64,000 nucleotides of DNA. It comes from an uncultured Pseudomonadales bacterium. GTDB taxonomy: Bacteria; Patescibacteriota; Microgenomatia; UBA1400; PJMF01. Below, one piece after another: positions 24,801 to 44,901 of this stretch (position 1 is its first letter; every line of letters begins with the position of its first letter). The stretch covers positions 19,144 through 83,143 of the forward strand of contig CAZWKL010000006.1 of the NCBI GenBank assembly GCA_964633875.1, written 5' to 3'. Below the pieces are notes generated by a model. That model did no database searches, had not been told where the DNA came from, and saw only the letters and a program-made list of their open reading frames with translations. A program made the position numbers and the translations under genes.

Positions 24801-25307
24801 ATGTTTAAAAAGAAATTGCTAATAATTTTTACCGCTCTGGCTTTGACACTGACTTCGATCTCAGCGCTAATGATCTCTCCGGAGCCAATGCTGGCGGCCG
24901 ACGAGGCTGGCGCTGGCTTTGGTGGTGGAAGCCAGGATGAAAGCAACAAGAGTATTCAGCTCAATCTGGGTCAGGAAGCCATCGAAAAGGAACTTCCTGG
25001 CAGCGCCAGTTCCGAGGAAGGCAGCCAGACTGCTGGGTTTAGTTATTGGCTTGGTCGAGCCATGTCTATTATTTTAATTGTCGCTGCGCTGCTGGTTTTG
25101 GTCAATTTACTTATGGGCGCCATCAAGTGGATTACCGCGGGCGGTGATTCTGGTAAATTGTCTGAGGCACAAAAACAAATCACCAGCTCCATTATTGGTC
25201 TGATCGTGTTGGCAGCGGTAGTCGCCATCTTCCAGCTGTTGACGGATTTTTTACAGTTAGACTTTATTACTTTTACTAACTCTAGTCCGCAGACAGAGCT
25301 TGACTAA
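24801..25307 (+). CDS. VirB2/TrbC-like T4SS pilin-family protein (paralog 8 of 11)
   Basis: Signal peptide; MGAIKWITAGGDSGKLSEAQKQITSSIIGLIVLAAV. Confidence 0.5.
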   Translation: MFKKKLLIIFTALALTLTSISALMISPEPMLAADEAGAGFGGGSQDESNKSIQLNLGQEAIEKELPGSASSEEGSQTAGFSYWLGRAMSIILIVAALLVLVNLLMGAIKWITAGGDSGKLSEAQKQITSSIIGLIVLAAVVAIFQLLTDFLQLDFITFTNSSPQTELD

Positions 25308-25371
25308 GCACTTCAAGTACTAGTATAATTTTGGTATCGTCTGTATCTTGTAAAATTAACAAAAGGAGATT

Positions 25372-25773
25372 ATGACACAAAACCTTAAACGAATTGCTGT
25401 TGGCGCCGGAGCCTTAGCAACCTCAGCAACAGCTGTTTTTGCAGCAGATGAAATAAGTATTAGAACACCTACCGGATTTTTTGATAACATGGGAACCCTG
25501 ATCAGCGGCCTGCTGAACTTTGTGATAATCATCGCCGCTCTCCTGGTATTCATTTACCTACTGTGGGGAGGAATTGAATGGATCACCTCAGGTGGTGATA
25601 AAGGCAAAACCGAGAGCGCTCGGAATAAGATCACCTCTGCTATTATTGGGTTGATCGTCTTAGCCGCCGCCTGGGCGCTACTGACTATCATTCTCAACTT
25701 CCTTGGTTATGACAACCTCCAACAAGTGTTCAACTTAAACATTGAAGAAGCTACTAGCGGAAATCAGAATTAA
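25372..25773 (+). CDS. VirB2/TrbC-like T4SS pilin-family protein (paralog 9 of 11)
   Basis: Signal peptide; WGGIEWITSGGDKGKTESARNKITSAIIGLIVLAAAWALL. Own TATAAT (25324-25329) and RBS AGGAG (25364-25368); followed by an intrinsic terminator. Confidence 0.55.
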   Translation: MTQNLKRIAVGAGALATSATAVFAADEISIRTPTGFFDNMGTLISGLLNFVIIIAALLVFIYLLWGGIEWITSGGDKGKTESARNKITSAIIGLIVLAAAWALLTIILNFLGYDNLQQVFNLNIEEATSGNQN

Positions 25774-25795
25774 GAAGAACTAGTAATAGTTTCGC

Positions 25796-25825
25796 AAAAA
25801 CCCCCTTTTACTAGGGGGTTTTTGG
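25796..25825 (+). terminator. Rho-independent terminator after pilin paralog 9
   Basis: AAAAACCCCCT-tttact-AGGGGGTTTTT: 6-bp GC stem, 6-nt loop, T-run downstream and A-run upstream (potentially bidirectional). Confidence 0.6.
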
Positions 25826-25848
25826 TTAAAATAGGTTATAATAACTCC

Positions 25849-26409
25849 ATGAAACAAATGTTATTGCTACTTATTCTGGCGGCAGCCGTGGTATTTTTAG
25901 CTGGCAACGCTAACGCTGATAGTCCTGAAAATTTAGCCAGCAACCGCCTGTACACGATTGTGGATCAAGAAACCGGAGAAGTGGTGAGCACCACCTCCGC
26001 GGAAACTATTTACTATGCTACCACTTCTGCCTTAAGGGCCGATTCCACCTCTGTGCCTACAACTACTACGCCTAGACGAGGACTTTTTTACCCGATTGAC
26101 ATTATCATTCCACGGGGTTTCTTCGATAACATTTCTGAACTAATCAATGGCCTTCTCCGGCTCTTAATGATTGTTGCCGCTCTTTTGGTTTTTGTTTACC
26201 TGCTTTGGGGAGGGATAGAGTGGATTACTTCCGGCGGTGACAAAGGCAAAACCGAGAGCGCTCGGAATAAAATTACCTCTGCTATTATTGGTTTGATTAT
26301 TATGGCTGCCGCCTGGGCACTGCTGACTATCGTGTTGAATTTCCTGGGCTACGCCGGTTTGGAAGACGTGCTCAACCAAAACATCAATGAAGCCGTGTCA
26401 AGACAGTAG
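25849..26409 (+). CDS. VirB2/TrbC-like T4SS pilin-family protein (paralog 10 of 11)
   Basis: ORF-track 25822..26409 starts inside the terminator; the Met at 25849 begins signal peptide MKQMLLLLILAAAVVFLAG. The C-terminal 80 aa are about 85% identical to paralog 9. Confidence 0.55.
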   Translation: MKQMLLLLILAAAVVFLAGNANADSPENLASNRLYTIVDQETGEVVSTTSAETIYYATTSALRADSTSVPTTTTPRRGLFYPIDIIIPRGFFDNISELINGLLRLLMIVAALLVFVYLLWGGIEWITSGGDKGKTESARNKITSAIIGLIIMAAAWALLTIVLNFLGYAGLEDVLNQNINEAVSRQ

Positions 26410-26831
26410 TGTTATACTATAGCTATATGTTTAAGCGCCTTGCTTTCACTTTGTTCACATTTCTCACTGCCAGTGCGTTGCTACTAAGCGTGCCGGCTCA
26501 AGCCGCCGCCCAATCGCAGGTGTGGGATGGTGTCTGCGTAGAAGAAGGAGATGTCGCTACCATCCAGGGCCTAGAGTGCTTGATTGCTAACATTTTTGCC
26601 GTGATTATCACTCTGATTGGCTTTGCCGGCTTTGTGATGTTCATTATTGGTTCTTTTCGTTGGATGCTGTCAGGTGGCAGCAGTAAAGGCGTGGAAACCG
26701 CCCGCAACACTATGACTTACGCGGTGGTGGGATTGGTAGTAGCCCTCAGTGCTTTTATTATTCTGAACCTAATTGCCGACTTTACCGGAGTAGGAGTGAT
26801 TACTAAATTTTTCATCCCCAGGTCCAATTAA
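26409..26831 (+). CDS. VirB2/TrbC-like T4SS pilin-family protein (paralog 11 of 11)
   Basis: Signal peptide; IGSFRWMLSGGSSKGVETARNTMTYAVVGLVVALSAFIIL; start overlaps the previous stop. Confidence 0.5.
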   Translation: MLYYSYMFKRLAFTLFTFLTASALLLSVPAQAAAQSQVWDGVCVEEGDVATIQGLECLIANIFAVIITLIGFAGFVMFIIGSFRWMLSGGSSKGVETARNTMTYAVVGLVVALSAFIILNLIADFTGVGVITKFFIPRSN

Positions 26832-27069
26832 TTTATAAATTAGCAATAGAGTTCAAATACACCGGCGCATAAAAAAGACACACTATTGATTTTCTCTTAA
26901 TATGGTATGCAGTCATTTTCAATGTAAACCATATTAAGGCCAGACAAGGGAAGTTTGAGGGTCGCAATTGGCTTTCCAGTAAAGAGGCGCTGCAGCGGTA
27001 TGTCAAAAATAGAGAACGAATGAGGTAAGGGGTTGGTTCCACCCCACCAATACCTGATATAATTGGCTT

Positions 27070-30000
27070 GTGTCAAAACACAGAATTTTTCTTGCCAGCC
27101 TGTGGTTGTTTATCTGTGCTGCGGTAGTGAGCGCCGGGTTTTTGCCGGCGGCTGCCAAGGCTCAGGTGGTGGGATCACACTTGGGCGTGGGTGATATTGG
27201 CGGCCAGATCAATAATATTCAAATTCTGCAGCAAAATGGCGCCGGCAGCGGTTTTCCCGTTACGATGATGTTGAATATTAATATGGCTGGTCAGGATCAA
27301 CAGGCTATGCACAATCTGGCAGCAGCCGTGGAAAGCGCCGGGTTTCTGCCCATTGTCAGACTAACGCACGTCTGTTCTGCTTTTGAAAGCGGCGTCACCC
27401 CCAGCAATGCGGTGCAAAACGCCAAAAATGCCTTTGGATCCAGTGCGTTGATTGTTTACGGCAACGAAGTCAACAATCGCGAGGCAGAGTGTCCGAACTG
27501 GACCAAGTACGTTGCTGATTACAACAGCATCGCCGACAAAACCAACGTTTCTCCCGCGGCTCTAGATTATTACATGGGCAATCCTGCTTATACCGTAGAG
27601 GTCTTTTTTAATTCCACTCCCGGAGCCAGAGAAATCTATGAAAACTCAACCATCAATGCGGCCAACGCCTATGAATGCGTCGGCACCTCCGATCAAAACA
27701 CGATGGCGTGTGAGTCTCCCTGGGAAGCCAATACTATGGCAGTAGGCTACCAGGCTTACAGTGGGCAAATTTTTCTAACCGAGTTCTCTCTTTCTCCGGA
27801 AGGCCGGGTGCCCAACTCCCCAGACACCGACTTGCAAAAAGTCGCTCAGTTTATCCAGGAAAAAGCGGCTGACACCGGCGCCAGCCTGATCACTCCGCTG
27901 GTGCGCAACGTTTGTAACAACGAAGGCGAGTGGCTGTTGTATGTGAACGGACGCTTGTTTACCATTGTGGGCACTGATGTGACTGAGAATTGTGAGGGCC
28001 GGGCCGGGGTGGGTGAGGGCTATGATTTGAGTGATTTTCCCGACTATGGCTATAATCAGTCGTATTATTATTTACATCCAATTAGAGGTATTCACCCCGA
28101 CACCGATCCTGACGGCAGAAAGGTGTCTGTAACCCGAGCTGATCTGGCCAGCCAAGGCTATGAAGCTTACTGCGCGGCTGAGCCAACCACCATCAAGTTG
28201 GACGTCAACACCAGAGATCTTATCAATAGATTTTTAGCCAGTAATCCCACCGGTGTGAGTGCAACCAGAGACTCAACCTACGTGCTAGACTCCAGCAGCG
28301 GGCAATTCCCACTTTTTCGCGATACAACAGGAAAAAAATATCTTACTACCTCGATTGAAGAGTTTTTTGGCTTCAAAGATGTTTACACCGACGACGGCTA
28401 CTCGGTCATGGAACTCAATACCGCCCCCATCAATACTCTGCTTTCGCAAGAGCAAAAATGTATCCAGGGAGTGGACATTCTCCGAAATATTCAACTGATG
28501 TGTGAGCGGCTGGAGGATCCTCGTGCTAACTGCGCTCTCCTGGAAAACCAAATTCCCGGGACAAATTATAATGTAAGCACCCTTTTGGACGATGTAGCTA
28601 AAGTCATTCCTGGCTACAGAGCGGGCAAAATCGGCGAACAGTGCCGGATGCTCTTTTCAGACCAAATCCCCGAGTTTGCTATGGAAGATCCCGAGCTACC
28701 AGTTTTCAAAAAAGCCATCACCAACGTGCCACTCAACATTGACCGTTCTTTCCGCCTGGCGTTTTTGGTGGCCTCAATTGAACAGCGGCCACAAACCAGC
28801 GCTTTCAACTTTTTTTCTTTTTCAGAAGCTGCTCAACCAAAACATGAAGTGCTGATTGTGGCTTTCAAAATCCCTGATATTCTCACCAACAAAGGTGGCG
28901 GTGAAGCCTCCGGACACCAATTTTTTAATGATTCTGCCACTCTAACCAGAGATGCCTTGGTACCACAACAATTTAGAACGGCTTTTTCCGATCCTAATGA
29001 AGATGAAGTTGACAGCTGCCATGACCAAATTCAAGGAAACGACTTTACCAAATATGGTTTTGACCAGCAGAGTCTTAATCGCAAAATTTGTACCGGCATC
29101 AATGCGCACAATGCCTCGGTGCAAAATCCTGATAGTCCGATTTACTGCTTGAGTGGTAGCGGCGACACGCCAGAGGAGCTGGAGGGTTTGGAAGGATCAG
29201 CTGCTTGTAAAGATATTCTGGGTAAAGCCGTGGTGGACCTAATCAACGGCAATACACCCAGCTGCAACAACATGCAATCCGAGCCGGTTTTAGAAGTGCT
29301 GCAGGCAGCTAACATTATTCCGCCAGATTTGAACGACGGCTCGCGCCTCTTTAATCCTGGCTACGGTTTTGGCAATGACGTGCTCAACTACATTTTTACG
29401 CAAAATCTCACTCCTCAGCGTGATGAAAGCACTTTTACCTCAATTTTTAATATTGTTGGCAGCGCTTTTGATAATGCGGAAAACGAAACAGCGGCGGTGG
29501 ATTTTTTCCTGGTCTATCCGGTGGGCTATGAGCTGGACTCGGTGACTGAAGTGCTGAAAAATACTTTTTTTACTGTTCACCAGATTGCTGAACTCGAGGA
29601 AAGTACCAACCGCTCGCGCTTTGAGGCCAAAGGCTTTGCTTCCGGCTTGAGCGGTGCCACTTTCAGTCACACTTTTAATGAATTGCCTTCCAGCGGCAAC
29701 TGCCAGGAGTCTACTATCTTGCTTGAGGAAGACCCTCTTACAGGGCTGCCAATCAACCCTCCTCAGGTAATAACAGTCCTCAACTGTGAACAAACTTTCA
29801 ATATTTCGGTCAATGAAGAAGGTGCTGGGGGGCTGAGTGTGTTGGGTGCCAGGCTGGGTTTTTGGATGAGAAATATTCAACAAACTCTTAACGGTCATTT
29901 TAGCAACGCTTCCGCTTACATCGCTTCCTGCGCTACCACTGAGGAGTTTTTGCTGGGCCGGTGTGCTGGCCGGGCAGTGGCTTCGCCTCCAGGCTCAAAC

Positions 30001-30498
30001 TTGGGCGGTTCGGAAATAGTCAGCCCGCTTTGCGGCCGCGATTATCCCATCAAAGCCGATGACATCGTGCCGGATTACCATTCGCAAACCATTCTTAATC
30101 GCAGCAGCGCTGCTTATCGCACCCAAGTACCAACAGAACCCGATGTCGGTCGCGCCATGTACTACGCTGCCGGAGTGATGAACCGGGTACTGCAAAACCG
30201 CATTGCCTGGAAGCAAATTCCTCCTGGCGCTGTTTCTGACTGTGAAGGTGGCGATAGTAAGTACCGCGGCTGTGTGGCGCTCCTGCGGGCTGGCGATATC
30301 GGGCGGGAAGTTTATCTCAAAAGACCTGGCCAAAATGCTGAAGGTCCGTACTTGGTCATTGATGTAGCAGCAGAAAAAGATATTGCTTGCTTATTGGAAC
30401 GCAACTGGATAGTAGATGTAGACTGGGGTACGGCGCAAAGATGGAACATGAAAGGGCCGGTGGATGCGCAGATTTGCGAAACCGCCGCTTGTCCGTAG
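27070..30498 (+). CDS. large secreted Cys-containing protein of unknown function (1142 aa)
   Basis: GTG start 6 nt after an extended -10 TGATATAAT (27055-27063); N-terminal signal peptide; many Cys; no recognised catalytic motif. Confidence 0.45.
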   Translation: MSKHRIFLASLWLFICAAVVSAGFLPAAAKAQVVGSHLGVGDIGGQINNIQILQQNGAGSGFPVTMMLNINMAGQDQQAMHNLAAAVESAGFLPIVRLTHVCSAFESGVTPSNAVQNAKNAFGSSALIVYGNEVNNREAECPNWTKYVADYNSIADKTNVSPAALDYYMGNPAYTVEVFFNSTPGAREIYENSTINAANAYECVGTSDQNTMACESPWEANTMAVGYQAYSGQIFLTEFSLSPEGRVPNSPDTDLQKVAQFIQEKAADTGASLITPLVRNVCNNEGEWLLYVNGRLFTIVGTDVTENCEGRAGVGEGYDLSDFPDYGYNQSYYYLHPIRGIHPDTDPDGRKVSVTRADLASQGYEAYCAAEPTTIKLDVNTRDLINRFLASNPTGVSATRDSTYVLDSSSGQFPLFRDTTGKKYLTTSIEEFFGFKDVYTDDGYSVMELNTAPINTLLSQEQKCIQGVDILRNIQLMCERLEDPRANCALLENQIPGTNYNVSTLLDDVAKVIPGYRAGKIGEQCRMLFSDQIPEFAMEDPELPVFKKAITNVPLNIDRSFRLAFLVASIEQRPQTSAFNFFSFSEAAQPKHEVLIVAFKIPDILTNKGGGEASGHQFFNDSATLTRDALVPQQFRTAFSDPNEDEVDSCHDQIQGNDFTKYGFDQQSLNRKICTGINAHNASVQNPDSPIYCLSGSGDTPEELEGLEGSAACKDILGKAVVDLINGNTPSCNNMQSEPVLEVLQAANIIPPDLNDGSRLFNPGYGFGNDVLNYIFTQNLTPQRDESTFTSIFNIVGSAFDNAENETAAVDFFLVYPVGYELDSVTEVLKNTFFTVHQIAELEESTNRSRFEAKGFASGLSGATFSHTFNELPSSGNCQESTILLEEDPLTGLPINPPQVITVLNCEQTFNISVNEEGAGGLSVLGARLGFWMRNIQQTLNGHFSNASAYIASCATTEEFLLGRCAGRAVASPPGSNLGGSEIVSPLCGRDYPIKADDIVPDYHSQTILNRSSAAYRTQVPTEPDVGRAMYYAAGVMNRVLQNRIAWKQIPPGAVSDCEGGDSKYRGCVALLRAGDIGREVYLKRPGQNAEGPYLVIDVAAEKDIACLLERNWIVDVDWGTAQRWNMKGPVDAQICETAACP

Positions 30499-30506
30499 CC
30501 GGTGCG

Positions 30507-31487
30507 CTATTTTTTGCTGATCTCGCCGGGGGAATGATTGAGACCGCCTTTGGGCTTTCTGCCCTGCTTTTTCTTTTGCGGACCGTTTGGTCTTGATTCT
30601 GGTACCACCGGCTGCCCTTGTTTTTGCCGGCTTGGTTGGCGCATCACTTTCATTTCTGTTTCCGTTTGATCTGCCTTTTGCCAACCAGCAATTTGGTACT
30701 CTTTTACCGGAGCTGGTTGCTGACCCGCTGGTTGAGCCGGTTGGGGCTGCTCTTGAGGCAGAGCTTGCCTTTCGGCCCCGCTTCTCATCAAAAACGCCAC
30801 CGTTTCAAAAGTATCGGCGGTTACATCCGGTGATTGCAGACCGTTGGTGGCCTCTTCAATACCAGCCAACAAAAAGGTGGCCGCGGTTGGATCCACACCA
30901 AGCTGCAGATTTTTAATCAATCCGGCGGTGAGCTCGCTAATGACACCAGTGCTAGCACTCAGATTAATACTTCCCACCGTAGCCGGCATGGCGGTCAAAG
31001 CAACAGCCGGGGTGTTGCGGAAAAGCTCTTCATAACCAAAATAAAGTTGCTCGAGGTTTTCCAAATTGTAAATACCAATGAGAAAAATTAGGTCGGCCTC
31101 GGCGCCAGTATAAGAAAATTCCACGCTGTCGGTACTCAGTGGCTCCTGGCCGCGCTGAGGTTTGATGGTGAGATAAAACTTGTTGGTTTCTTCTCCAATA
31201 TGGTAGCTGACTTTATCCACCGCTTCCGGAGAGTAATCAAAACTAACCACCAAATTTTGGTTGCCCACTTCTATTCTGGTAATTTCAGCCACCTGCGTCA
31301 TTTCCTGAAGCTGCGGCTGCCTGGGCGAGTAAAGAGTGGCGTCTTTGCCGGCCTGCCTCAAAGCCTGCTGCAGAGCAAAAGCGCTGGCCAGCTCGTCTTT
31401 GCTAGGATTGGCGGCGTACATGATTAAAATGGTACGGGCATTTTCCAGCAGGGCTTGAATTTGAGGGAGTTGTTCGCGGTCTGTCAT
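30507..31487 (-). CDS. DHH-phosphoesterase-like protein with degenerate active-site motifs and Q/P-rich basic C-terminal tail
   Basis: The N-terminus ILIMYAANPSKDELASAFAL aligns to the NrnA-type motif ILITGHxNPDGDALGS, but the His/Asp positions are substituted. The DHH position reads GIY. Judged from memory of the family. Confidence 0.3.
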   Translation of the reverse strand: MTDREQLPQIQALLENARTILIMYAANPSKDELASAFALQQALRQAGKDATLYSPRQPQLQEMTQVAEITRIEVGNQNLVVSFDYSPEAVDKVSYHIGEETNKFYLTIKPQRGQEPLSTDSVEFSYTGAEADLIFLIGIYNLENLEQLYFGYEELFRNTPAVALTAMPATVGSINLSASTGVISELTAGLIKNLQLGVDPTAATFLLAGIEEATNGLQSPDVTADTFETVAFLMRSGAERQALPQEQPQPAQPAGQQPAPVKEYQIAGWQKADQTETEMKVMRQPSRQKQGQPVVPESRPNGPQKKKQGRKPKGGLNHSPGEISKK

Positions 31488-31604
31488 AAGAAAAGTATAT
31501 CACAATATATCGGTAGTTGTAGGTTTGAGTTTTGTACCCTGCATTGAACTGCCCTGTCAAGTTACGCTCTGTCATCATCAATCAATTGTTGTTATAATAT
31601 CGCC

Positions 31605-33464
31605 ATGGCAAAGCGTATGCTTCTGCTAGCTGTTGTTTTTATTGCCCTGTTTTCCCTGGGAAGTGTTGTGGTATCCGCACAGGATGAAAGTGAAGAAACT
31701 TTACCAATAACTGAAGACGTGGGCTTTACCACTGATGTCGCGCTCATCAAGCAGTACACTGAAGCAACTAAGAGGTGTGATTCTCCGTCTCTGGAGTGTC
31801 TAGTGTATTACGTTGTTAATTATACCGCCATTGAAATCACCAACAGCATCGCGCCAATTGCGGGTGTGGAAGATCCAAATGATAGCGCCGCGCCAATTAA
31901 CCAACTGCCAAATTCAGAATATCGCGGCCCAGTTATTGCCGGCAGAAAAGGCGTAGTGCCGGGACTCAGCTATTTAATTGTCCAAATGTACGGCAATCCC
32001 CCTGCCACCACAGACATGTATGTTGCAGATGTACTTAATTCCGCCGGAGTGGCGGTAGCGCCACCCGCTTATGCTCAGGGCCTGGGTTTTGTAGCCCTCA
32101 ATCCGGTGCTTGAATTATGGAAAACTTTTCGCAATGTTGCTTACATTTTTTATGTGCTGATGTTTGTGGTGATTGGTTTTATGATCATGCTCAGGCAAAA
32201 GGTGGGCCAACACGCCATCACTGCTCAACAAGCTATTCCCAGCATTATTGTCAGCTTAATTTTTGTGACCTTTTCCTATGCCATTGCCGGATTTTTAATT
32301 GACCTGATGTATTTGAGCATGTTTTTGATTGTCGGTATCTTTGAGAGTGTGACCGAAATAGGCTCAGAGGTAATTGGTTACAACATCTTTCAACTTGGTA
32401 AGGAATTTATTAACCAAGGTTATTTCAGCGGGAAAGACGCCGCTTATAACATGGTTCCTGAAATGATTCAGGCAGCACTTAATAGTGGCAATTTTGTTGG
32501 CCAAAGTGCTGTTAGTTGGGTGTCAGGCATAACTGTGGGTTTGATTGTCGCGGTGGCGGTGCTAATCGCCACCTTCAAGCTCTTTTTTGAGCTGCTTAAA
32601 TCCTACGCTACCATTGTGTTGATGGTGGTAACCGCGCCCATTCAATTAATGATTGGCGCCATTCCCGGCAAAAATACCGTGAGCTCTTGGATAAAAAGCC
32701 TGGTTGGCAATCTGTCGGCATTCCCGGTAGTTCTCATGGGGTTCATTATGTTTAGAATTTTTGTGGACGGAGCTATGGGCACCCAGTCGGGTGGATTTAT
32801 GCCGCCATTCTTGCTCAGCAATGGCACCGCAAACTCCATCACTGCTCTGATGGGCTTGGCTATCTTGCTGGCAATTCCCGAAATTGTGAAAAAAGTTAAA
32901 GATTCTCTGGGAGCTGGAGGAGGGTTTGGGGAGATGATTGCCCAAGAAGCCATGGGTAAAACTAAACAAGCATTGCCACTGGGTGGAAGACTTGGCACCG
33001 GCGTATGGATGGGTCCTGGAGGGGCAATCATAAGCGGTGGCGCAGCTGGTCTTTCTAGAGGGGGAAGTCAGGCAGCTCAAGTAATACGTAATGTTTGGAG
33101 TGGTCAATCAAGACCTTCTGCATTGCTTTCAACTGTTCCAAGATTTTTGGGTGGTTTTGGATCTGGTGCACTTTTGGGGGATAGTTTCGGAAGCACTCAA
33201 AGAGATGCTCAAGGGCGCGAAATACGTAGAGGCGGGGTTATAAGAGGATTTAGAACTGGAATAAATTTGGGAGCGAGAGCTACTAATAGGGTGGCAACTT
33301 CTGCTGGAGCCAACCAACCGGATTGGCTAAGTCCAGTTACAAATCTATATGATCGAGCCGCTTTAACCGAAGAGCAAAGAGCTGAAATCAGAGAAAATCA
33401 GCGTTGGGAAGACAGAATGGATAGAACGGGCTGGATCAGGAGAAGAAGTCGCGGGGAAGTGTAA
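31605..33464 (+). CDS. polytopic membrane protein, candidate VirB6/TrbL-like T4SS channel component
   Basis: Signal peptide, ~130-aa ectodomain, six or more TM helices and a Gly-rich C-terminal tail. Assignment is by topology and context only. ATG lies 6 nt after TGTTATAAT (31590-31598). Confidence 0.4.
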   Translation: MAKRMLLLAVVFIALFSLGSVVVSAQDESEETLPITEDVGFTTDVALIKQYTEATKRCDSPSLECLVYYVVNYTAIEITNSIAPIAGVEDPNDSAAPINQLPNSEYRGPVIAGRKGVVPGLSYLIVQMYGNPPATTDMYVADVLNSAGVAVAPPAYAQGLGFVALNPVLELWKTFRNVAYIFYVLMFVVIGFMIMLRQKVGQHAITAQQAIPSIIVSLIFVTFSYAIAGFLIDLMYLSMFLIVGIFESVTEIGSEVIGYNIFQLGKEFINQGYFSGKDAAYNMVPEMIQAALNSGNFVGQSAVSWVSGITVGLIVAVAVLIATFKLFFELLKSYATIVLMVVTAPIQLMIGAIPGKNTVSSWIKSLVGNLSAFPVVLMGFIMFRIFVDGAMGTQSGGFMPPFLLSNGTANSITALMGLAILLAIPEIVKKVKDSLGAGGGFGEMIAQEAMGKTKQALPLGGRLGTGVWMGPGGAIISGGAAGLSRGGSQAAQVIRNVWSGQSRPSALLSTVPRFLGGFGSGALLGDSFGSTQRDAQGREIRRGGVIRGFRTGINLGARATNRVATSAGANQPDWLSPVTNLYDRAALTEEQRAEIRENQRWEDRMDRTGWIRRRSRGEV

Positions 33465-33484
33465 AAACGCTTCTTTATTTAGTT

Positions 33485-36400
33485 TTACTTATTAGGATCT
33501 TGCTCCTCAATTGTGGGCTCTCTAAGCCAATTGTCATATATTGTTTTAAATTCTGGACCCCACATATTTTCAAAAGTCCTGCTCAAATCATGTGATCTGA
33601 CCTCTCTCTCATCATCAAAGAACAATCGCCACGGTCTTCCAATTGAATGCCAGCCATCTAATTGCTCAATTACTTTCTGTAACGGATGGTCTCCTTTAGA
33701 ATATACCTCTTGTGGCAAAGTGGCAGCAGAACCCAAAACTTTCTGGGCCACTTCTGCAAAGCGCTTTGCTTTAGGTTTTAAATTTTCTCTCCTAAACCTA
33801 ACACTGGGAGGAGCTCCTTCAGGAACGCCCTCGCCTAAAAGTGCCGAATATTTATTATAAATCTTTTTCAAATAGACAACACTCATTAATTGAATGGTGT
33901 TTGCAAAGGTTCTCTCTCCCTTAGGCAGACATATCCACATGCCCTTAAAATTTTTAATCCTATCAACCAACTGGCCCATTGCCGTATCTAGTTGATCAAC
34001 ACTATGAATGGTACCAAAATCACCATCAACAAATTTATCAAATTCTCGAATTTCTTCCTGCATGGTCCTAAACTGATAATATGTGGGGACATCTTTCATC
34101 TTTTCTCCACGCCATTGGCCATTAATCCAGTCCCAAAGTGTAGGTTGAAATTTCAGATCTTCATGAAGTTGAACATAATCAATGCCATATGGAGAGAAGT
34201 CTGCAATCATCCGATTTCTTACCATAACAAACGTTTCTAGATTCTTAACGCTTTTATTACTGCTTTTCTTCTCCCTCTCCGTTGAGTTTGGTGGCTCCAT
34301 AGCCGCATATATGGAGCGCTCATACACCACCTCAGTTGCACTAAACTTTTCCTTCAACGGGGAAAACGTTTTGTTCATCCAACTTCTAAACCCGGACGGC
34401 AATCCTGAAGGAATAGGGAGACTGTACCTAGTAATAGAAGAAACCTTTTCTGGTAACCGAGTAACCATTGAATAAACTCTGTATTTGGGAAGCGAGGCGC
34501 CTGATTGAGCCTTATAAAGTATGGCTGCCATTGGTGAAGCATCAGCCGAAGCGGTTGCATCAAAACCAGGAACGGGTGATCCTTGATACATTGCGTATTC
34601 AGGAATATATGCATCAGATCTCATTTCAGACACAACTACAAAACGCCTCATAGCCAACTTGATGAAGTCTGGAAAATGGGCTAATTCCGGAAACTCTCGC
34701 TCTAAAACTTGATTAATAGTAAACACTCCATTTGGGTTGGTGTGTTCATCATAGACCAAATTACCTGTTGGATTACCTTTTGCAGCGTAATTCCAGTGTC
34801 TATCTTTCTCATCCTGAACATCAGCGTCGTGTTTCCTACTTCTTGTAAAAGGCCCATTGAAAAGTTCATTTCTGAGAAAATCCACAACTTCTTTAATATT
34901 AATTTTGTGTTCAACTCCCAATTTGTCTTTTATAGCAAAATCACCAAAGTGCCGAAACTTTCGGAGATGATCCATTAGAATAAATGATCCCGCCGCTTCT
35001 CTGGCTTTTGTGACATCTGCCCACGCCAACAGCGCTGGCCAGTCACTCCCTCCAGCCTCATCAACGGCATCGCGAAGAAGAATGGAGATATCAAGAAGCT
35101 CTCTTTCTTCTTCATTATTAAAATGCTCCTTGGCAATGCGCTTCATTGCGTCAACAGCATCGGTAACTTTGTTGTCTCCCCTAGTTCCACGCATTTTGTC
35201 GTTGTCTTCTAACATCTGCCAAAGCTCATCCATCTTTTTTATTTGATCCGTTTTCAAAACTTCGCTTTTAGCAGTTTCAATTGCTTCATTGATTCTCCTT
35301 ACTGCTTCACCATAACGTCCTCCAAGCTTGGTGGGACCAACAAGTTTTTCGATTGCGTCAGTGGTAGAACTATGACTGTAATTGGTTTGATCAAGATAGC
35401 CAGCAGCATCTATTGCTTTATAAGCATTTTCAAGGTTAGTTTTGAGAGCCTCTAAATCATCTTTTTCGTGCGCCCCGGGAGCAGAGCTATGAGGCGCAAT
35501 GTTATTAAGGTCTATTGCCTCAACCTTCTCAATTTCATCCACAAAGAGTTTAACATCCGCATTCCACTGATCAGTTTCTTTTTTAGCCTCAGCTTCTTCT
35601 TTCTTTTTGTCAATCTCCTTCAGCAAGGAGCGCATTTTTTCCAACAAATCTTCTGCCTGTCTTGAAGCATTTCTTAAGGCAACTAGTCTATTTACTTGTT
35701 CTGAATTTATTCTTTCGTTGGCATGCTCAACATGAATATTTACCAGTTCTTGCAGATGAACGATTTTGTCAATATTAGTATTTAAGTCCGCCTCAATAGC
35801 ATTAATTCTAGCCTGACTCACAGAGTAATCCAGTCCCCTCAGCTCAGTTTCATATGCGGCTATTCTGGGATTTTCTAATGCCATGAGCTCCAACAACTCG
35901 GTTAAATATTTTGGCGGCCAATCGTTATCATCCTCGGCTTTGGGTGGTTGTTCTGGTGGGGGAGGTTGTTGCGGAGGTTGCTCCTGACCGCCTTGGGCTT
36001 TCTTCTCAGCCTGCCCTAGATAAAAAAGTCGTTGCTCACGAAGTTTTTTTACTAAAGCGCTGGCGAAATTTGAGGGCAATACATCTCTTTTTTCAACATA
36101 GTACTCCTGAGCAATTTCGCGTAGCCTTTCAATTGCTATCTCTTCAGGATTATCGCCCAATAAATCAAGGTCATATTCGTGACGAAGATTTACAACTTTT
36201 TCTCGGACAGAGCGAATTATTTGCTCAGGAGTGCTGTTTTCTTCTTCTGCCTTCGGTTCAGCCTCTTCATTGATGGGTTGCTGTTCTTTTTCCGAATCGT
36301 CTTCTTCCATCTCGGCCCCACCGAGTGGCTCTTCCCCAATTTCAGTTTCTGGTTCTGTTTGAGGCTCATCTTCAAGAGCAGATGCTTCGTCGTGAAGATC

Positions 36401-36628
36401 TCCTAAGTCTATTGAGTCAGTTACAGCAAAAAAGTTTGCATTGTCTTTGAGAAACTTTTCAGCTGCTGCTATTGCTTTAAGCGCGGCGGATTTTTTTTGA
36501 TCTTTAATAAGCTGTTTGACCTCTTCCACATAAGCATCAAACTCGACAGAAGGATTAGAAAATTCAACAGGTTCATTGTCAGGCTGAATATCAGGCTGAT
36601 GGTCGGGACGAGGTTGTTCGGACATCAA
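33485..36628 (-). CDS. large acidic coiled-coil protein of unknown function (1047 aa)
   Basis: Long uninterrupted ORF with an E/D-rich N-terminus, a PPQQPPPPEQPP tract and extended helical regions; no enzymatic motif seen. Confidence 0.4.
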   Translation of the reverse strand: MMSEQPRPDHQPDIQPDNEPVEFSNPSVEFDAYVEEVKQLIKDQKKSAALKAIAAAEKFLKDNANFFAVTDSIDLGDLHDEASALEDEPQTEPETEIGEEPLGGAEMEEDDSEKEQQPINEEAEPKAEEENSTPEQIIRSVREKVVNLRHEYDLDLLGDNPEEIAIERLREIAQEYYVEKRDVLPSNFASALVKKLREQRLFYLGQAEKKAQGGQEQPPQQPPPPEQPPKAEDDNDWPPKYLTELLELMALENPRIAAYETELRGLDYSVSQARINAIEADLNTNIDKIVHLQELVNIHVEHANERINSEQVNRLVALRNASRQAEDLLEKMRSLLKEIDKKKEEAEAKKETDQWNADVKLFVDEIEKVEAIDLNNIAPHSSAPGAHEKDDLEALKTNLENAYKAIDAAGYLDQTNYSHSSTTDAIEKLVGPTKLGGRYGEAVRRINEAIETAKSEVLKTDQIKKMDELWQMLEDNDKMRGTRGDNKVTDAVDAMKRIAKEHFNNEEERELLDISILLRDAVDEAGGSDWPALLAWADVTKAREAAGSFILMDHLRKFRHFGDFAIKDKLGVEHKINIKEVVDFLRNELFNGPFTRSRKHDADVQDEKDRHWNYAAKGNPTGNLVYDEHTNPNGVFTINQVLEREFPELAHFPDFIKLAMRRFVVVSEMRSDAYIPEYAMYQGSPVPGFDATASADASPMAAILYKAQSGASLPKYRVYSMVTRLPEKVSSITRYSLPIPSGLPSGFRSWMNKTFSPLKEKFSATEVVYERSIYAAMEPPNSTEREKKSSNKSVKNLETFVMVRNRMIADFSPYGIDYVQLHEDLKFQPTLWDWINGQWRGEKMKDVPTYYQFRTMQEEIREFDKFVDGDFGTIHSVDQLDTAMGQLVDRIKNFKGMWICLPKGERTFANTIQLMSVVYLKKIYNKYSALLGEGVPEGAPPSVRFRRENLKPKAKRFAEVAQKVLGSAATLPQEVYSKGDHPLQKVIEQLDGWHSIGRPWRLFFDDEREVRSHDLSRTFENMWGPEFKTIYDNWLREPTIEEQDPNK

Positions 36629-36719
36629 AAAGAATTATACCACCACTTGAGAAATTACGCACATAAGCAATAGCTTTTTATGCCAACCGCGCCAACCGTG
36701 TTTGCGGTATAATTGCCTC

Positions 36720-39700
36720 ATGGCTAATGCGGACGCACCTGCTCTACCCTTAACCAAACTCGAGAATGTAAAATACTTCAAGACCGACGTTTCTCCAGAG
36801 GATTTTAAGGAATTTCTCACCACCCTCCCTCAAGCCATTTCCGGCAGTGGCGAACTGCAAAAAGGGGTGAAGGTTTTTGTACCAGGCAACGAAAAATTTA
36901 ACAGCAGAAAACTTGAGGCCGCTGACGATTCTGATTTGGTTTCAGAAGAACACAGTGCTGAAGCGCTTTATTATTCCGATATCGTCCGGCTCATTTCCGA
37001 CTCGATGAGATGGCTCATGGAAAATGGCACTCATGAAGAAATTGGGAACTTAAGAGACCGGTTTGACCACCTAAACAGAAATCCCAACGCCATCTTAACC
37101 CAGTGGGGAGGGGTTAAGGCTGGTGGCGAAAGCGCTGTTTCCGAAATAGAAATTCAGAAATTTAGAGGTGACATTCCGGAGCTGATCAACTATGTTTTGT
37201 ATTTTGCCAAAAAAGAGTTTAGCGACCTGGCTACGGAGCCATCGGAAAAAGATGGGGCGGCAGCGGCTCCAGGGAAACCGGCTAAAGGCGATGATCAGGC
37301 TGTCGTTGGGGGAAAGCCAGAGGCAGACGGAGGGGCTGATCAAGCTGGCTCAGCAGAGCCGGATGAGCAACGCCCTCAACCTCCCAGTCCGGAACAAGAA
37401 GAAGCCCACAAGAAAAAAATCCTCTACGAAGCCACCTGGATCTACAACCAGGCGCTGCACGATTTTTTCATCACTCACGGCATTGATTACGACTATCTCG
37501 AAACTCACCCAGAGTTGCGCGATCTAATTCTCTCCGAAACTGTCAAAATCCTGGAAAGCCGCTCCGAGCGCGAGCTGATGATTCTTTTCGCCAACCCAGG
37601 CAGAAGGTTGGAAATACTCAGAGAGCTTTACATCAACCTGGCCCAATCGCCGCAACTTGCCGTTGGCTTGCAAAATTTTTACGACACCTACGCGCAAGCG
37701 CTACCCGAGGAGGCTCGCCAGGAATTTCTGGCTAGCTTGTCCCGCTCTGAAAACGTTCTTTCCCAGGCCATTCAAGGCAAAATGGTTTCCAACGATTACC
37801 AACTGCGCCAACAAGTCGCGGCAGTTTTGGGCACCGACAGCCCCACCTTGATTGGCGTGGGTTCATCGGAGTTCACCCAAATTATGGGCTCGATTCAGAT
37901 TAATATTGATGCGCTCCTAATCGGTCAGGGTGTTGATTTCCTGATAGTTAGCTCTGATGGAAACGTCGAAAAGACTAGCGAAAATCCCCACAACGCCATT
38001 TGGCTGATTCAAAAAATGAGCGATGACCATTTGCTGTTGATGCTCGGTGTTCCTCCCGATATCCGTCTTTCCGCGGAAGCAGTAGAGCGGTTGAGAAAAA
38101 TCGTCATCAATTACGCCAGAATGAGGGCGATTTATCTGGCTGAGCGCGCGGAAAATCTGGCGATTGCCGAGGGAATCAATCCGCTGAATGAGGCAGATGC
38201 TAATGCTATCGCCGCCAATGACACGGTCACTGCCAAGCGAGCACTACTAGCGCCTCATCAAGATACGGCTGGATTAATCAAGGCAGAAGAAGACTCGGGA
38301 AATGGCGGCGAAGTCGTTTATGGAGCTTTAACCCAAAATATTAAACAGCTTGAGGCCAAACGGCAAGCTCAATGGCACTCACTTTCCAAGGAAGAACAAG
38401 AGCTCATCCTGGTATTTTTGGGCAAAGAAATTGGGGCAGAGTATTACGAAGTCCCTTTTGAAATCGGGCTGTTTAGACTGCAAGCGCTGATAGCTGAAGC
38501 TGAAAAAACCGCGGTTTCACAGGCAGAACTGCTCAAATACCAGGCAACCTCACAAGCGATGATGAGTGAGGCTTTGTACGCCTTTGCCTACGAACAAGAA
38601 ATTGCTGCTAGGCAGGAGTTTCTGCGCCAGGAAATTTTAGGAGAGTACTTCGCCGCCGTTGATGAAGCAGAGCTGGCTGCCATGGCTGAAGAACTTGACT
38701 ACGAGAATGAGGCGCAACTCTATGAAGAAAGTCTGAGTAATGTTGTGCGCGCTCATGAAGGTGCGGGAGAGCGAGCTGAGGCAGGAGCAGCGGGCGGGCG
38801 TTTCGGCAGGTTGGGAAGAATCGGCGATCGTTTTAGAAACCGGTTTGCAAAAGAAGGCCGCTTTTCTCCAAAACAAAAGTTGCTTGGTGCTATTAAAAAA
38901 ACCGGAGCTAGAAAACTGGGCAGTGCGGCGGCTCAAAAACTAGGTGGTTTGATCGGTGGCCCAGTGGGCGCGGCGCTTGCCAAAGCGCTAACAGGAAAAA
39001 ACAGAAAGTGGGTGGGTGGCGCTCTGGCTGGAGCCGGGTTGTTGGCCTTAAAAGGCCTTGCCGCGATGTTGCAGGGCGGTAAAGCCTTGCTGATTGGCTT
39101 GGGAGCTGGCGGCGCTACTGGGGGAGCGCTGTTGTTGTTGGGTTTAACCGGGCCGGTTGGAGCGGTGATCCTTGGTGTTGGTGCGGGTTTAGCTGCCGCT
39201 GGCGGGTATAGTTTATTGAGCGGAGCTGGAACCGCAGAAGGAGCGGCCGGTCTTGGCGGCGGTGGCTTGATTGGAGGAGCGGGCGGAGTTCCGCCTGCCG
39301 CTTACACCGCTATGCCAGCAGAAGCTGTAAGTGGCGCGGAGGCCACAACTGGCGGCGCGGCGGCGGCCGCTATCACCACAACTACCGCTACAGCCGCCGG
39401 CGCCGCCAGTTGGACTACAGTCGCTAGCTTCCCCACTGCGGTCTTAATTCCCATTTTAAGCCTAGCGCTGACAGCAGTAGCCAGCCTCATCGTCATCCTC
39501 ATCATCCAAGGCTCCTTCCTCATCACCCTGCCGCCGTCTCTTAGTAGCAGAACTTACACCAGCAACTTGAGCGGTTTTGAGGGCTGTTGGCCCACCACCG
39601 GCAGAATAACTTCATATCGCACCTACATGATCGGTGGTGGTGGTAGCAACCATGCCACTGTGGGTGCTGGTAAGTACTTACATGGCTACGAGGGTCCGGG

Positions 39701-40940
39701 TATTGCCTTGGACATTGGCGCCGGAGGCAATTCTGAGGCTGAGGGCGGCTCTAATCCGCCGGTTTTCTCTCCTTTTTCGGGGACGGCCACTTTTTATCCT
39801 GAAGGGACCGGAGTGTATTGTGCCAGCTGCGCTCATAAATATCCCTACGGTAATTACGTGGTGGTAGACACGGGTGATTTTGCTCTGATTTTTGCTCATC
39901 TACTGCATTTTCCGGACCCAAACGTTCAATACCCCATTGTTGGCACCAATCAGATGACCTCTATCAGTTGGACGCAAAAAACGGAAAACGTTCAAATTAC
40001 GGCGGGCAATCTTCTAGGACTGATGAACAGCACCGGCAACTCCACCGGCAATCATCTTCACTATGAAGTAGTGGGTGGTGGTGTGGATATTATTGATCTG
40101 GTTCCGCTAACAGACGCAGAAAAAGCTGAGGCTAAAGCAGATGAATACACAATTTTTGGCATGCGAGTCAATTCACAAGAGTGTTCCCGTGCAAATGTTG
40201 ATGAAGAAGAAGGCATTTCTGGCTACATCGCTATTGGCCCTCAGAATCCCGACAACTTAGTGGTAACTCCTTCCAGCATGTTCCAAAGTCCGGTTCATCC
40301 TTGCACTTGGTTTGATCAAAATCAAAACTTGGCCGTGGCAATTAATGCCAATTATTACAATAGCTCGTCTGAGCCAATTGGCCCTGCCGGCAGTGATCCG
40401 GTTAGATATCTAGCCAATGCCAATGACAGATCTTCAGCCTACATGTCGGAGACAATGCGCTATCTTGGGGTGACTACCGGCGGCGCCTTGCAGTTTGGAC
40501 CAGTGCCTCCCGCTTGGTACAACAATCCCAACAAGCCTTTTAATATCGACAGCTTGACTAAAGCCATTACCGGAACACTTTCCACCCATCCCGATGATAA
40601 CCAATTTAGAAATCGGGTGGCCCTTGGTTTTGGGAGCGTTAATGGCCAGTGCACTGATTACAGCGGACCAGCCTTTATTGTTGGCGGCATGCGGGCCGCT
40701 TCTTATTCTGATTTAGCAAAAATGATGACCGCTTGTGGCGCTGAAGAGTTCATCTTCCTGGATGGCGGCGGCTCCGCTTCTTTCTGCTCTGAAAATCTCA
40801 ATATTACCGGCAGTAGAGTCATGCCGGTGAGCGTGGGCTTGATTCAAGCCGAAGTAGAAACCTACAGCTCGAACGAAGAAGAAGAGGGCGTAGGTATTCA
40901 ACCTCCTCCCGGCGGTTTCCCTGGGCCACAACCAATTTAG
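36720..40940 (+). CDS. giant envelope hydrolase: N-terminal helical region, Gly/Ala-rich TM segment, M23 (LytM) metallopeptidase domain, C-terminal phosphodiester glycosidase-like domain
   Basis: M23 motifs HxxxD...GNSTGNHLHYEV; C-terminal FIFLDGGGSASF resembles the LDGGGS motif of phosphodiester glycosidase (DUF2233-like). The ORF-track start 36702 is a TTG overlapping TATAAT (36708-36713); the ATG at 36720 is preferred. Confidence 0.55.
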   Translation: MANADAPALPLTKLENVKYFKTDVSPEDFKEFLTTLPQAISGSGELQKGVKVFVPGNEKFNSRKLEAADDSDLVSEEHSAEALYYSDIVRLISDSMRWLMENGTHEEIGNLRDRFDHLNRNPNAILTQWGGVKAGGESAVSEIEIQKFRGDIPELINYVLYFAKKEFSDLATEPSEKDGAAAAPGKPAKGDDQAVVGGKPEADGGADQAGSAEPDEQRPQPPSPEQEEAHKKKILYEATWIYNQALHDFFITHGIDYDYLETHPELRDLILSETVKILESRSERELMILFANPGRRLEILRELYINLAQSPQLAVGLQNFYDTYAQALPEEARQEFLASLSRSENVLSQAIQGKMVSNDYQLRQQVAAVLGTDSPTLIGVGSSEFTQIMGSIQINIDALLIGQGVDFLIVSSDGNVEKTSENPHNAIWLIQKMSDDHLLLMLGVPPDIRLSAEAVERLRKIVINYARMRAIYLAERAENLAIAEGINPLNEADANAIAANDTVTAKRALLAPHQDTAGLIKAEEDSGNGGEVVYGALTQNIKQLEAKRQAQWHSLSKEEQELILVFLGKEIGAEYYEVPFEIGLFRLQALIAEAEKTAVSQAELLKYQATSQAMMSEALYAFAYEQEIAARQEFLRQEILGEYFAAVDEAELAAMAEELDYENEAQLYEESLSNVVRAHEGAGERAEAGAAGGRFGRLGRIGDRFRNRFAKEGRFSPKQKLLGAIKKTGARKLGSAAAQKLGGLIGGPVGAALAKALTGKNRKWVGGALAGAGLLALKGLAAMLQGGKALLIGLGAGGATGGALLLLGLTGPVGAVILGVGAGLAAAGGYSLLSGAGTAEGAAGLGGGGLIGGAGGVPPAAYTAMPAEAVSGAEATTGGAAAAAITTTTATAAGAASWTTVASFPTAVLIPILSLALTAVASLIVILIIQGSFLITLPPSLSSRTYTSNLSGFEGCWPTTGRITSYRTYMIGGGGSNHATVGAGKYLHGYEGPGIALDIGAGGNSEAEGGSNPPVFSPFSGTATFYPEGTGVYCASCAHKYPYGNYVVVDTGDFALIFAHLLHFPDPNVQYPIVGTNQMTSISWTQKTENVQITAGNLLGLMNSTGNSTGNHLHYEVVGGGVDIIDLVPLTDAEKAEAKADEYTIFGMRVNSQECSRANVDEEEGISGYIAIGPQNPDNLVVTPSSMFQSPVHPCTWFDQNQNLAVAINANYYNSSSEPIGPAGSDPVRYLANANDRSSAYMSETMRYLGVTTGGALQFGPVPPAWYNNPNKPFNIDSLTKAITGTLSTHPDDNQFRNRVALGFGSVNGQCTDYSGPAFIVGGMRAASYSDLAKMMTACGAEEFIFLDGGGSASFCSENLNITGSRVMPVSVGLIQAEVETYSSNEEEEGVGIQPPPGGFPGPQPI

Positions 40941-44807: not shown

Positions 44808-44901
44808 ACCCCAAGTCCGGGTCTCAGGTTTGGGCAGAAGCAAACTTGGCTTTTAAGGCCGGTCTTTATCAGTCCGTGCAATTAAAGTACAATGTCAATT
44901 G

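Follow-up and report, generated by a model that had tools for sequence, protein, structure and literature searches.

Introduction

In Gram-positive bacteria, type IV secretion systems (T4SSs) open the cell wall with VirB1-type hydrolases, which are membrane-anchored proteins, often with an intracellular N-terminal part, that expose between one and three enzyme domains outside the cell (PMC12857230). PrgK combines LytM, muramidase and CHAP domains, and TraG combines SLT and CHAP domains (PMC12857230). Anchored, multidomain wall hydrolases associated with T4SSs are already known as a kind. Few envelope machines are conserved in Patescibacteria, and T4SSs are among these; the one member of this group in which the question has been tested needs its T4SS to grow on the host (PMC10633639). 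Patescibacteria T4SSs are MPF_FATA-like, adjoin dnaA/dnaN, and include pilin arrays; VirB6 is scarce in Microgenomatia (PMC12102498). Indeed, a 2025 survey found Microgenomatia to be without several recognisable T4SS components, and VirB1 homologues in Patescibacteria to be mostly unlinked to virB4, with the remark that other glycosidases might substitute for them (PMC12102498). Here, we describe a gene from a 64,000-nucleotide (nt) stretch of contig CAZWKL010000006.1 (assembly GCA_964633875.1, positions 19,144 to 83,143 of the forward strand), which we refer to as “the window”. The DNA is from an uncultured, ultrasmall bacterium of the Patescibacteria (CPR). The gene (36720..40940, + strand) encodes a 1406-amino-acid (aa) protein, hereafter “the target”, in which an M23 metallopeptidase domain is followed by a phosphodiester glycosidase domain of the NAGPA type.

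We conclude that the target is probably the wall-remodelling subunit of a Patescibacteria (Microgenomates-like) T4SS, and a functional analogue of PrgK and TraG, because its design and its genomic setting match those of the Gram-positive VirB1-type hydrolases. As such, it is probably the wall-opening enzyme, unrecognised until now, of the T4SS of this lineage. A first-pass annotation of the window, made by a model that saw only the DNA and its open reading frames (ORFs), had suggested a VirB1/PrgK-type functional analogue. By analogy, this suggestion fits both the literature on anchored Gram-positive hydrolases (PMC12857230) and the finding that VirB1 is mostly unlinked to virB4 in Patescibacteria (PMC12102498). 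Below, we describe the two enzyme domains, the conserved gene cluster that surrounds them, the scaffold on which they are carried, and the other explanations that these data allow.

Two predicted wall-enzyme domains

A Pfam scan of the whole protein finds both enzyme domains named in the first-pass annotation, with scores slightly below the curated cut-offs. Peptidase_M23 (PF01551, cut-off 28.7 bits) scores 26.4 bits (E=8e-6), in a match confined to the model's C-terminal third, and NAGPA (PF09992, cut-off 25 bits) scores 23 bits (E=1e-4). We therefore tested both domains by independent routes. One of these was an AlphaFold2 (AF2) model of aa 945–1406, built on an alignment of 26 homologues (mean predicted local distance difference test, pLDDT, 84.4) and compared with the PDB using Foldseek. 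The model recovered both enzyme folds.

The M23 domain occupies aa 952–1125 (39573..40094, + strand). A profile made from 18 M23 domains of the family matches 35 solved M23 chains in the PDB, with a best E=3.5e-20, and the M23 domain of a relative that shares the same scaffold scores 59 bits in Pfam. Foldseek aligns the model with LytM (2B13), lysostaphin (4QPB), LytU (5KQB), EnpA (6SMK) and Csd2 (5J1K), with E-values from 1e-4 to 2e-3 and a probability of 1.0 for each, and also with Pgp3 (6JMZ). The M23/LytM domain is thus significant by both family profile and Foldseek, and its assignment to the M23 fold is secure as a prediction from sequence and model.

The catalytic residues of this domain are conserved, with an unusual arrangement of the first of them. 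The segment GNSTGNHLHYEV is present, with its HLH at aa 1112–1114. D998, H1060 and H1112-x-H1114 are invariant in alignments of 50 representatives of the family, and an upstream His is kept in nearly all 50, at an H-to-D spacing that ranges from 6 to about 25. In the window protein, the motif reads H(x)19D, with H978 as its His. By definition, M23 enzymes have H(x)nD together with HxH; n is 12 in LasA and 7 in gp13 of phi29 (PMC9662197). Because the spacing varies in this way, we read the domain as a spacing variant rather than as a degenerate one, with H978 as the probable zinc ligand. An invariant CWPxxG signature (C956), specific to the family, opens the domain. The first-pass annotation depended on the presence of the catalytic His and Asp residues of the M23 motif; D998, H1060 and the HxH are in place, and the first His stands at a non-canonical spacing. 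A degenerate LytM domain was considered and rejected, since of the five catalytic positions four do not vary, and the substitute His is conserved.

The NAGPA-type domain occupies aa 1165–1382 (40212..40865, + strand). Scanned alone, it scores 27.6 bits (E=4e-6) and exceeds the PF09992 cut-off; the same family is matched in 14 of 20 members of the protein family, with a best E=3.9e-14. By Foldseek, the domain matches vertebrate NAGPA structures (6PKU, 6PKY, 6U11, 6PKG and 6PKI; E 9e-7 to 2e-5, probability 1.0, Foldseek target template-modelling score ~0.5), as well as the bacterial structures 5H3K and 6OZD. The segment FIFLDGGGSASF is present; its exact DGGGS (aa 1348–1352; nt 40761–40775) is aligned to the corresponding motif of 5H3K, 3OHG and 6PKU. 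For NAGPA itself, the loop 286-DGGGS-290 (human numbering) is reported as strictly invariant from bacteria to man; it binds the sugar-phosphate, and activity is lost when any one of its residues is mutated (PMC13474241). The D, the third G and the S of the motif are invariant in 20 relatives of the target, as are N1209, N1211, W1197 and C1356. An AINANYYN motif lies at aa 1207–1214. A nearly conserved Arg, R1366, lies 18 residues past D1348 and is a possible equivalent of human NAGPA R316. As for M23, the fold assignment is secure at the level of sequence and structure prediction, and the NAGPA-like domain of the first-pass annotation stands.

It could be argued that one or both of these ectodomains are non-catalytic, acting as regulators or wall-binding modules in the manner of the PrgK LytM/CHAP domains or of the degenerate LytM factors EnvC and NlpD, with some other enzyme doing the cutting. 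PrgK's own LytM and CHAP domains do appear to be regulatory (PMC12857230), the canonical first zinc-ligand position of the target is a Gly, the whole-protein Pfam scores fall under the curated cut-offs, and the gene for a SpoIID-like lytic enzyme lies close by, at 15576–17291. However, LytM domains that have degenerated are usually without several of their ligands, whereas here the D, the H and the HxH are invariant and the upstream His is kept across the 50 divergent representatives. Moreover, the DGGGS is intact, and we recognised no second hydrolase domain within the conserved core cluster. We consider non-catalytic ectodomains very unlikely.

A conserved position in a T4SS gene cluster

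The gene for the target lies inside a T4SS-like cluster, as the first-pass annotation had it. Pilin and polytopic-protein genes are upstream, and genes for PrgI, a TraC-like protein and VirB4 are downstream, with this position conserved in six related loci. These loci come from a Microgenomates-group metagenome-assembled genome (MAG), the Patescibacteria MAGs UBA1370 and JTS-RE179, and others. All six share the order target, 320–374-aa bitopic protein, PrgI, TraC-like protein, VirB4, and dnaA and/or dnaN. The upstream genes (24801..36628) are kept in synteny wherever the related contigs reach them. Across the six-locus comparison, VirB4 is 72–93% identical and the target 34–87% identical. The cluster in the window matches the published description of Patescibacteria T4SSs.

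The conserved position also bears on whether the target is simply a housekeeping autolysin for growth or division that happens to adjoin T4SS genes near the replication origin. M23 enzymes commonly act in growth and division (PMC9662197), and the dnaA region is rich in housekeeping genes (dnaN, yidC and rnpA). Nonetheless, the gene is enclosed by T4SS-specific genes rather than standing at the cluster's edge, and it does so in all six of the loci examined; its scaffold domain, in turn, is confined to large proteins of the same architecture. A housekeeping role is therefore highly improbable.

Architecture and predicted membrane topology

The order of an N-terminal region, a membrane region, M23 and the NAGPA-like domain that was set out in the first-pass annotation is borne out by hydropathy, Pfam and the AF2 models, and all the peptide strings quoted there are found at the expected positions in the translation. 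The length needs correction. In the ORF listing of the window, the long + strand ORF runs from a TTG at 36702 to 40940 and encodes 1412 aa; its first ATG, at 36720, gives 1406 aa with the stop at 40940. The first-pass span of 36720–40940 fits the ATG start, and the length of 1412 aa that accompanied it fits the in-frame TTG instead. Public gene calls use the ATG, and an identical 1406-aa translation is recorded on a 61-kb Logan contig. A perfect TATAAT is found at 36708–36713, 6 nt 5′ of the ATG, hinting at a leaderless or very short-leader transcript. A scan for promoters and terminators gave nothing exceeding shuffled expectation, and a full sigma-70 site was not called at this TATAAT.

An AF2 model of the N-terminal part, built on a 37-sequence alignment (pLDDT 81), consists of an alpha/beta domain, a disordered linker and a helical domain. 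The alpha/beta domain, N1 (aa 1–170; 36720..37229; pLDDT ~90), has no hydrophobic segment, is predicted to be cytoplasmic, and is confined to the closest relatives. It is joined by an acidic, Gly/Ala/Pro-rich linker (aa 172–220; 37233..37379; pLDDT 31–37) to N2, an all-helical domain (aa 224–686; 37389..38777; pLDDT 80–95). N2 is common to ~40 cluster representatives and constitutes the conserved scaffold of the family. We found no relatives of N2 in Pfam, the PDB or BFVD, and no matches of the N-terminal part in the PDB (by phmmer), PHROGs or Pfam. At ~460 aa, the modelled N2 is a candidate new fold.

The membrane region follows. A Lys/Arg-rich juxtamembrane segment (aa 690–764; 38787..39011), with 19 K/R against 2 D/E, is predicted to lie on the cytoplasmic face. 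It leads into Gly/Ala-rich, glycine-zipper-like hydrophobic segments (aa 765–834; 39012..39221) that are present in all family members and probably form a transmembrane hairpin (aa 789–809 and 813–834). A Gly/Ala/Thr-rich low-complexity loop without basic residues (aa 835–902; 39222..39425) separates these from the transmembrane helix that the first-pass annotation had recognised, SFPTAVLIPILSLALTAVASLIVILIIQ, which is strongly hydrophobic (aa 903–930; 39426..39509). The two enzyme domains come next, and the protein ends in an acidic, Pro/Gly-rich disordered tail (aa 1386–1406; 40875..40937; pLDDT ~40). All of these features are on the + strand.

The predicted topology places the N-terminus inside, followed by the hairpin, the loop and the transmembrane helix, with the C-terminus outside. 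We infer this N-in/C-out arrangement from the positive-inside rule, from the absence of a signal peptide, and from the location of all eight cysteines C-terminal to the last transmembrane helix (39585–40787; aa 956–1356). The N-terminal region (aa 1–690) is acidic, and a hydrophobic N-terminus is absent. C956, C1155, C1195 and C1356 are conserved among relatives; conserved cysteines in the ectodomains suggest disulfides and favour an extracytoplasmic location. C956 was also considered as a lipobox cysteine. This was rejected, since it lies ~25 residues past the transmembrane helix, within the CWPxxG of the first M23 strand.

A scaffold family with exchangeable ectodomains

Proteins related to the target are difficult to find with standard tools. 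Word-indexed searches are nearly blind to the family, returning two matches for the C-terminal half, none for the N-terminal 690 aa, and three for a family profile. A profile search of GTDB species representatives gave only three true relatives, plus generic M23 genes. By contrast, an exhaustive search with aa 207–1406 against 1.84 billion cluster representatives returned 104 proteins at E<1e-3, 17 of them at E<1e-30. Since homologues of the same architecture occur in other metagenome assemblies, the ORF is not a chance product. Low-complexity artefact as the source of these matches was rejected, as the N2, M23 and NAGPA regions align separately. Public records name family members merely “M23 family metallopeptidase” or “MepM/NlpD”. 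Two related records, the locus L005 (CAZESB010000013.1) and the protein P0016 (MCB9813470.1), are labelled “Pseudomonadales bacterium” despite a Patescibacteria-type T4SS/dnaA cluster, which is probably a taxonomic mislabel; one of the two is on a contig of 1.08 Mb, as long as a whole CPR genome.

Mapping segments of the query onto the 104 representatives, and scanning their ectodomains with Pfam, revealed a modular family. In ~40 representatives, N2 is followed by the Gly/Ala-rich membrane region and then by the final transmembrane helix. Beyond this point, the proteins differ. Some carry M23 and NAGPA (e.g., P0001, P0004, P0006–8, P0010, P0013 and P0014), in a more divergent form in P0009, P0011, P0012 and P0016. 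Others have M23 alone (P0005, P0023 and P0027), CHAP (P0019, 30.5 bits), an HExxH zincin-like domain (P0021, P0032 and P0033), or a zincin with NAGPA (P0022). P0005 holds the same locus position as the target gene and lacks NAGPA, indicating that NAGPA is an accessory module. The scaffold domain itself was found only in large proteins of the architecture of the target. The CHAP, zincin-like HExxH, M23 and NAGPA ectodomains that it exchanges are the enzyme types of Gram-positive T4SS hydrolases (PMC12857230). The first-pass annotation called the domain combination unusual. This is fair: M23 plus NAGPA of the type seen in the target was found only in this Patescibacteria family, although NAGPA has been described with another wall peptidase, NlpC/P60, in Bacillota (PMC12419801).

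A family that exchanges M23, CHAP, zincin and NAGPA ectodomains between relatives might also be expected of a weapon directed at the host. In this explanation, the ectodomains would act on the envelope of a host or prey cell, through very tight contact, proteolytic release, or delivery by the T4SS. Cultivated Patescibacteria are obligate epibionts that cannot grow on the host without their T4SS (PMC10633639, PMC12102498), NAGPA domains are known from proteins predicted to act in inter-bacterial conflict (PMC12419801) and from prophage depolymerases (PMC9862828), and the target has no signal peptide. The variant with T4SS delivery likens the target to phage tape-measure/ejection proteins, which share a long helical part, Gly-rich membrane segments and an M23 lysin; indeed, the M23 part of the target also matches the tape-measure/ejectosome proteins phrog_10030, 9K2V and 9M7N. 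However, the enzymes begin ~20 residues past a strong transmembrane helix, and a protein anchored in this way would hardly reach beyond its own wall. Nor was a cleavage site or secretion signal identified, and no phage protein is significantly similar to the N-terminal fold (best BFVD match E=0.03, template-modelling score 0.1). Finally, among orthologues the catalytic domains are the best conserved parts of the protein, contrary to what would be predicted from an arms race acting on them: M23 is 43–62% identical and NAGPA 33–50%, against 24–39% for N2 (VirB4 is 72–80% identical). We therefore regard a host-directed weapon as unlikely.

A related explanation, which we consider distinctly unlikely, is that the target is a host-breaching element of the T4SS, working like a tape-measure or ejectosome protein instead of opening the producer's own wall. 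Its glycine-zipper segments would insert into the host envelope, which M23 and NAGPA would dissolve, with targets that include polymers anchored through N-acetylglucosamine (GlcNAc)-1-P, e.g., teichoic acids or arabinogalactan linkers. The swapped ectodomains would then fit different host walls, and the N-terminal domain would couple to the secretion ATPases.

Possible mechanism of wall opening

We favour a role in remodelling the cell's own wall, which could proceed as follows. The 690-aa N-terminal part would stay in the cytoplasm, where it may dock on, or be regulated by, the ATPase/translocon of the T4SS. The Gly/Ala-rich hairpin and the final transmembrane helix would anchor the protein N-in/C-out, such that the two ectodomains would lie right against the membrane's outer surface, beside the secretion apparatus. 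There, the M23 domain, a putative zinc endopeptidase with H(x)19D and HxH, would cut the peptide cross-links of the cell's own peptidoglycan. The NAGPA-type domain would hydrolyse GlcNAc-alpha-1-phosphodiester bonds by means of its intact DGGGS loop. Wall teichoic acids and other secondary polymers are joined to the 6-OH of N-acetylmuramic acid (MurNAc-6-OH) by the same type of bond as the GlcNAc-P-6-Man of NAGPA. The most plausible guess at the substrate is accordingly a bond of this kind between MurNAc-6-OH and secondary wall polymers, or else a polymer that contains GlcNAc-1-P. The first-pass annotation had likewise put forward teichoic-acid-like or host polymers as targets that this domain might have. 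Together, the two domains may open the wall locally to let through the channel and VirB2-like pili.

Several observations weigh against wall remodelling by a T4SS subunit. First, the canonical His of the M23 Hx3D motif is replaced by G994, which aligns with the ligand His of 5J1L (HNHTGLD) and 3SLU (HTGID). Second, the loop that holds H978 is modelled at a pLDDT of only ~52, so that ligation of zinc by this residue is put no higher than probable. Third, the number of membrane passes is ambiguous, and four hydrophobic segments can be counted, which would leave the enzymes inside the cell. Fourth, docking by the N-terminal part is a guess, because the domain has no detectable relatives. Lastly, we found no SLT, lysozyme or muramidase domain, the hallmark of VirB1, in Pfam, NCBIfam, PDB sequence or fold searches. 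The target is therefore an analogue of VirB1, not a homologue. On balance, the domain identities, the conservation of their motifs, the T4SS synteny and the modular family are supported by the data given here, whereas the topology, the substrates, the localisation and the role of the N-terminal domain are inferred; we retain wall remodelling as the probable role.

Neighbouring genes

The genes immediately downstream of the target are all on the + strand. The first encodes a bitopic 374-aa protein (41017–42141). It is followed by genes for a PrgI/VirB3-like protein fused to a C-terminal CarboxypepD_reg (Ig-like) domain by Pfam (42195–43460), a fusion kept in related loci, and for a TraC-like protein (43500–44807) and the VirB4 ATPase (44899–46965). 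Downstream of 46965 are dnaA, dnaN, rnpA and yidC.

Upstream, five genes in an array encode proteins of small or medium size with the features of VirB2-like pilins, i.e., a signal or transmembrane segment and a two-transmembrane pattern (17368–18561, 18558–19133, 23389–23955, 24801–25307 and 25822–26409, all + strand). Three of the five match PF18895, T4SS_pilin: 24801–25307, 25822–26409, and the tail of 17368–18561, a 397-aa protein in which the pilin module is C-terminal. Adjoining this first pilin-domain gene is one for a SpoIID-domain protein of the lytic transglycosylase family (15576–17291, − strand), which could provide the glycan cleavage that the target lacks. Further genes lie between the array and the target. 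The 1142-aa product of 27070–30498 (+ strand; 55% identity in L003) has one hydrophobic segment, at its N-terminus, and matches nothing in Pfam or among PDB sequences; it may belong to the cell surface or be associated with the pilus. The bitopic protein encoded at 41017–42141 likewise has no PDB sequence relatives. A 326-aa protein is encoded at 30507–31487 (− strand). The 619-aa product of 31605–33464 (+ strand) is polytopic, with ~7 hydrophobic segments and 58–87% identity in L003, L005 and L006. It has no Pfam match and is a plausible candidate for an analogue of VirB6, a subunit rarely detected by hidden Markov model surveys in Microgenomatia. Lastly, a 1047-aa acidic, cytoplasmic protein without transmembrane segments (33485–36628, − strand) has no family or PDB matches, and its gene is transcribed divergently from that of the target. 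Its counterparts in related loci are similar in size and orientation and barely recognisable in sequence (30% over 257 aa in L007); this protein evolves extremely fast. BLASTP at E<1 detected no similarity between the target and the products of 33485–36628 and 27070–30498.

Other genes lie farther upstream of the secretion region. A 780-aa ATPase resembling type IV coupling proteins is encoded at 684–3026 (− strand), ~40 kb from virB4, with matches to TrwB_AAD_bind, DUF87 and TraG-D_C; coupling proteins have been reported to be unrecognisable in the T4SSs of Saccharibacteria. An ATP-dependent DNA ligase of the archaeal/eukaryotic type (9747–11615, − strand) and a Fic-domain protein (11631–12722, − strand) are also encoded there.

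Comparison with known systems

The gene family described here offers a specific candidate for the wall-remodelling subunit that has been missing, and it shows that a modular scaffold can exchange different wall enzymes. If the glycosidase is active, the building of a T4SS through a Gram-positive-type envelope would include the clearing of phosphodiester-linked wall polymers, beyond the cutting of peptidoglycan, and bacterial DUF2233 proteins would gain a physiological setting. We found no earlier description of a NAGPA-type phosphodiester glycosidase within a secretion-system cluster, and our literature search returned no paper linking NAGPA or DUF2233 with T4SSs or Patescibacteria.

The closest described systems are PrgK (pCF10) and TraG (pIP501), of classes DELTA and ALPHA. 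Like the target, they are encoded in an MPF_FATA-like cluster with PrgI/VirB3 and VirB4, lack a cleavable signal peptide, and have an intracellular N-terminal part, an anchor and then two or three extracellular, wall-active enzyme domains, an order that the predicted topology of the target repeats. PrgK also has a LytM/M23 domain, and relatives of the target carry CHAP, as TraG and PrgK do. By contrast, the target has a NAGPA-type phosphodiester glycosidase in place of SLT or muramidase, and its M23 domain keeps the catalytic residues, whereas the LytM domain of PrgK is described as regulatory. The target also differs in its very large cytoplasmic part (~690 aa), with a fold that has no known relatives, and in its anchor, a Gly/Ala-rich region of several segments where they have one transmembrane helix.

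Each enzyme domain has relatives of its own. The M23 domain shares its fold, the HxH, the Asp and the extra catalytic His with LasA, phi29 gp13, LytM and lysostaphin. It differs from LasA (n=12) and gp13 (n=7) in its spacing of 19, its CWPxxG signature, and its membrane tethering within a 1406-aa protein. The glycosidase domain shares its fold, PF09992 and the DGGGS with NAGPA (the enzyme that uncovers mannose-6-phosphate) and with the DUF2233 proteins 3OHG, Slr0280 (5H3K) and BPSS2145 (6OZD), and it shares the INAxFFN-type upstream motif of Slr0280. Sequence identity to these proteins is only ~14–16%, the propeptide and EGF stalk are absent, and the domain is fused to M23 and a T4SS-linked scaffold; unlike for NAGPA, the substrate cannot be a lysosomal-enzyme glycan. 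The pairing of NAGPA with a peptidoglycan peptidase recurs in Bacillota conflict proteins that join prok-TelC and NAGPA, sometimes with NlpC/P60, as described in a study of lipocone proteins (PMC12419801), and the NAGPA-like depolymerases of prophages are likewise directed at envelopes (PMC9862828). Unlike the target, these proteins are secreted or phage-borne and have ligand-binding domains, without a T4SS context, M23 or a cytoplasmic scaffold. Relative to all of these systems, what is new in the target is the combination of enzymes, the H(x)19D/CWPxxG subfamily of M23, the large scaffold without fold relatives, and the modular family to which it belongs.

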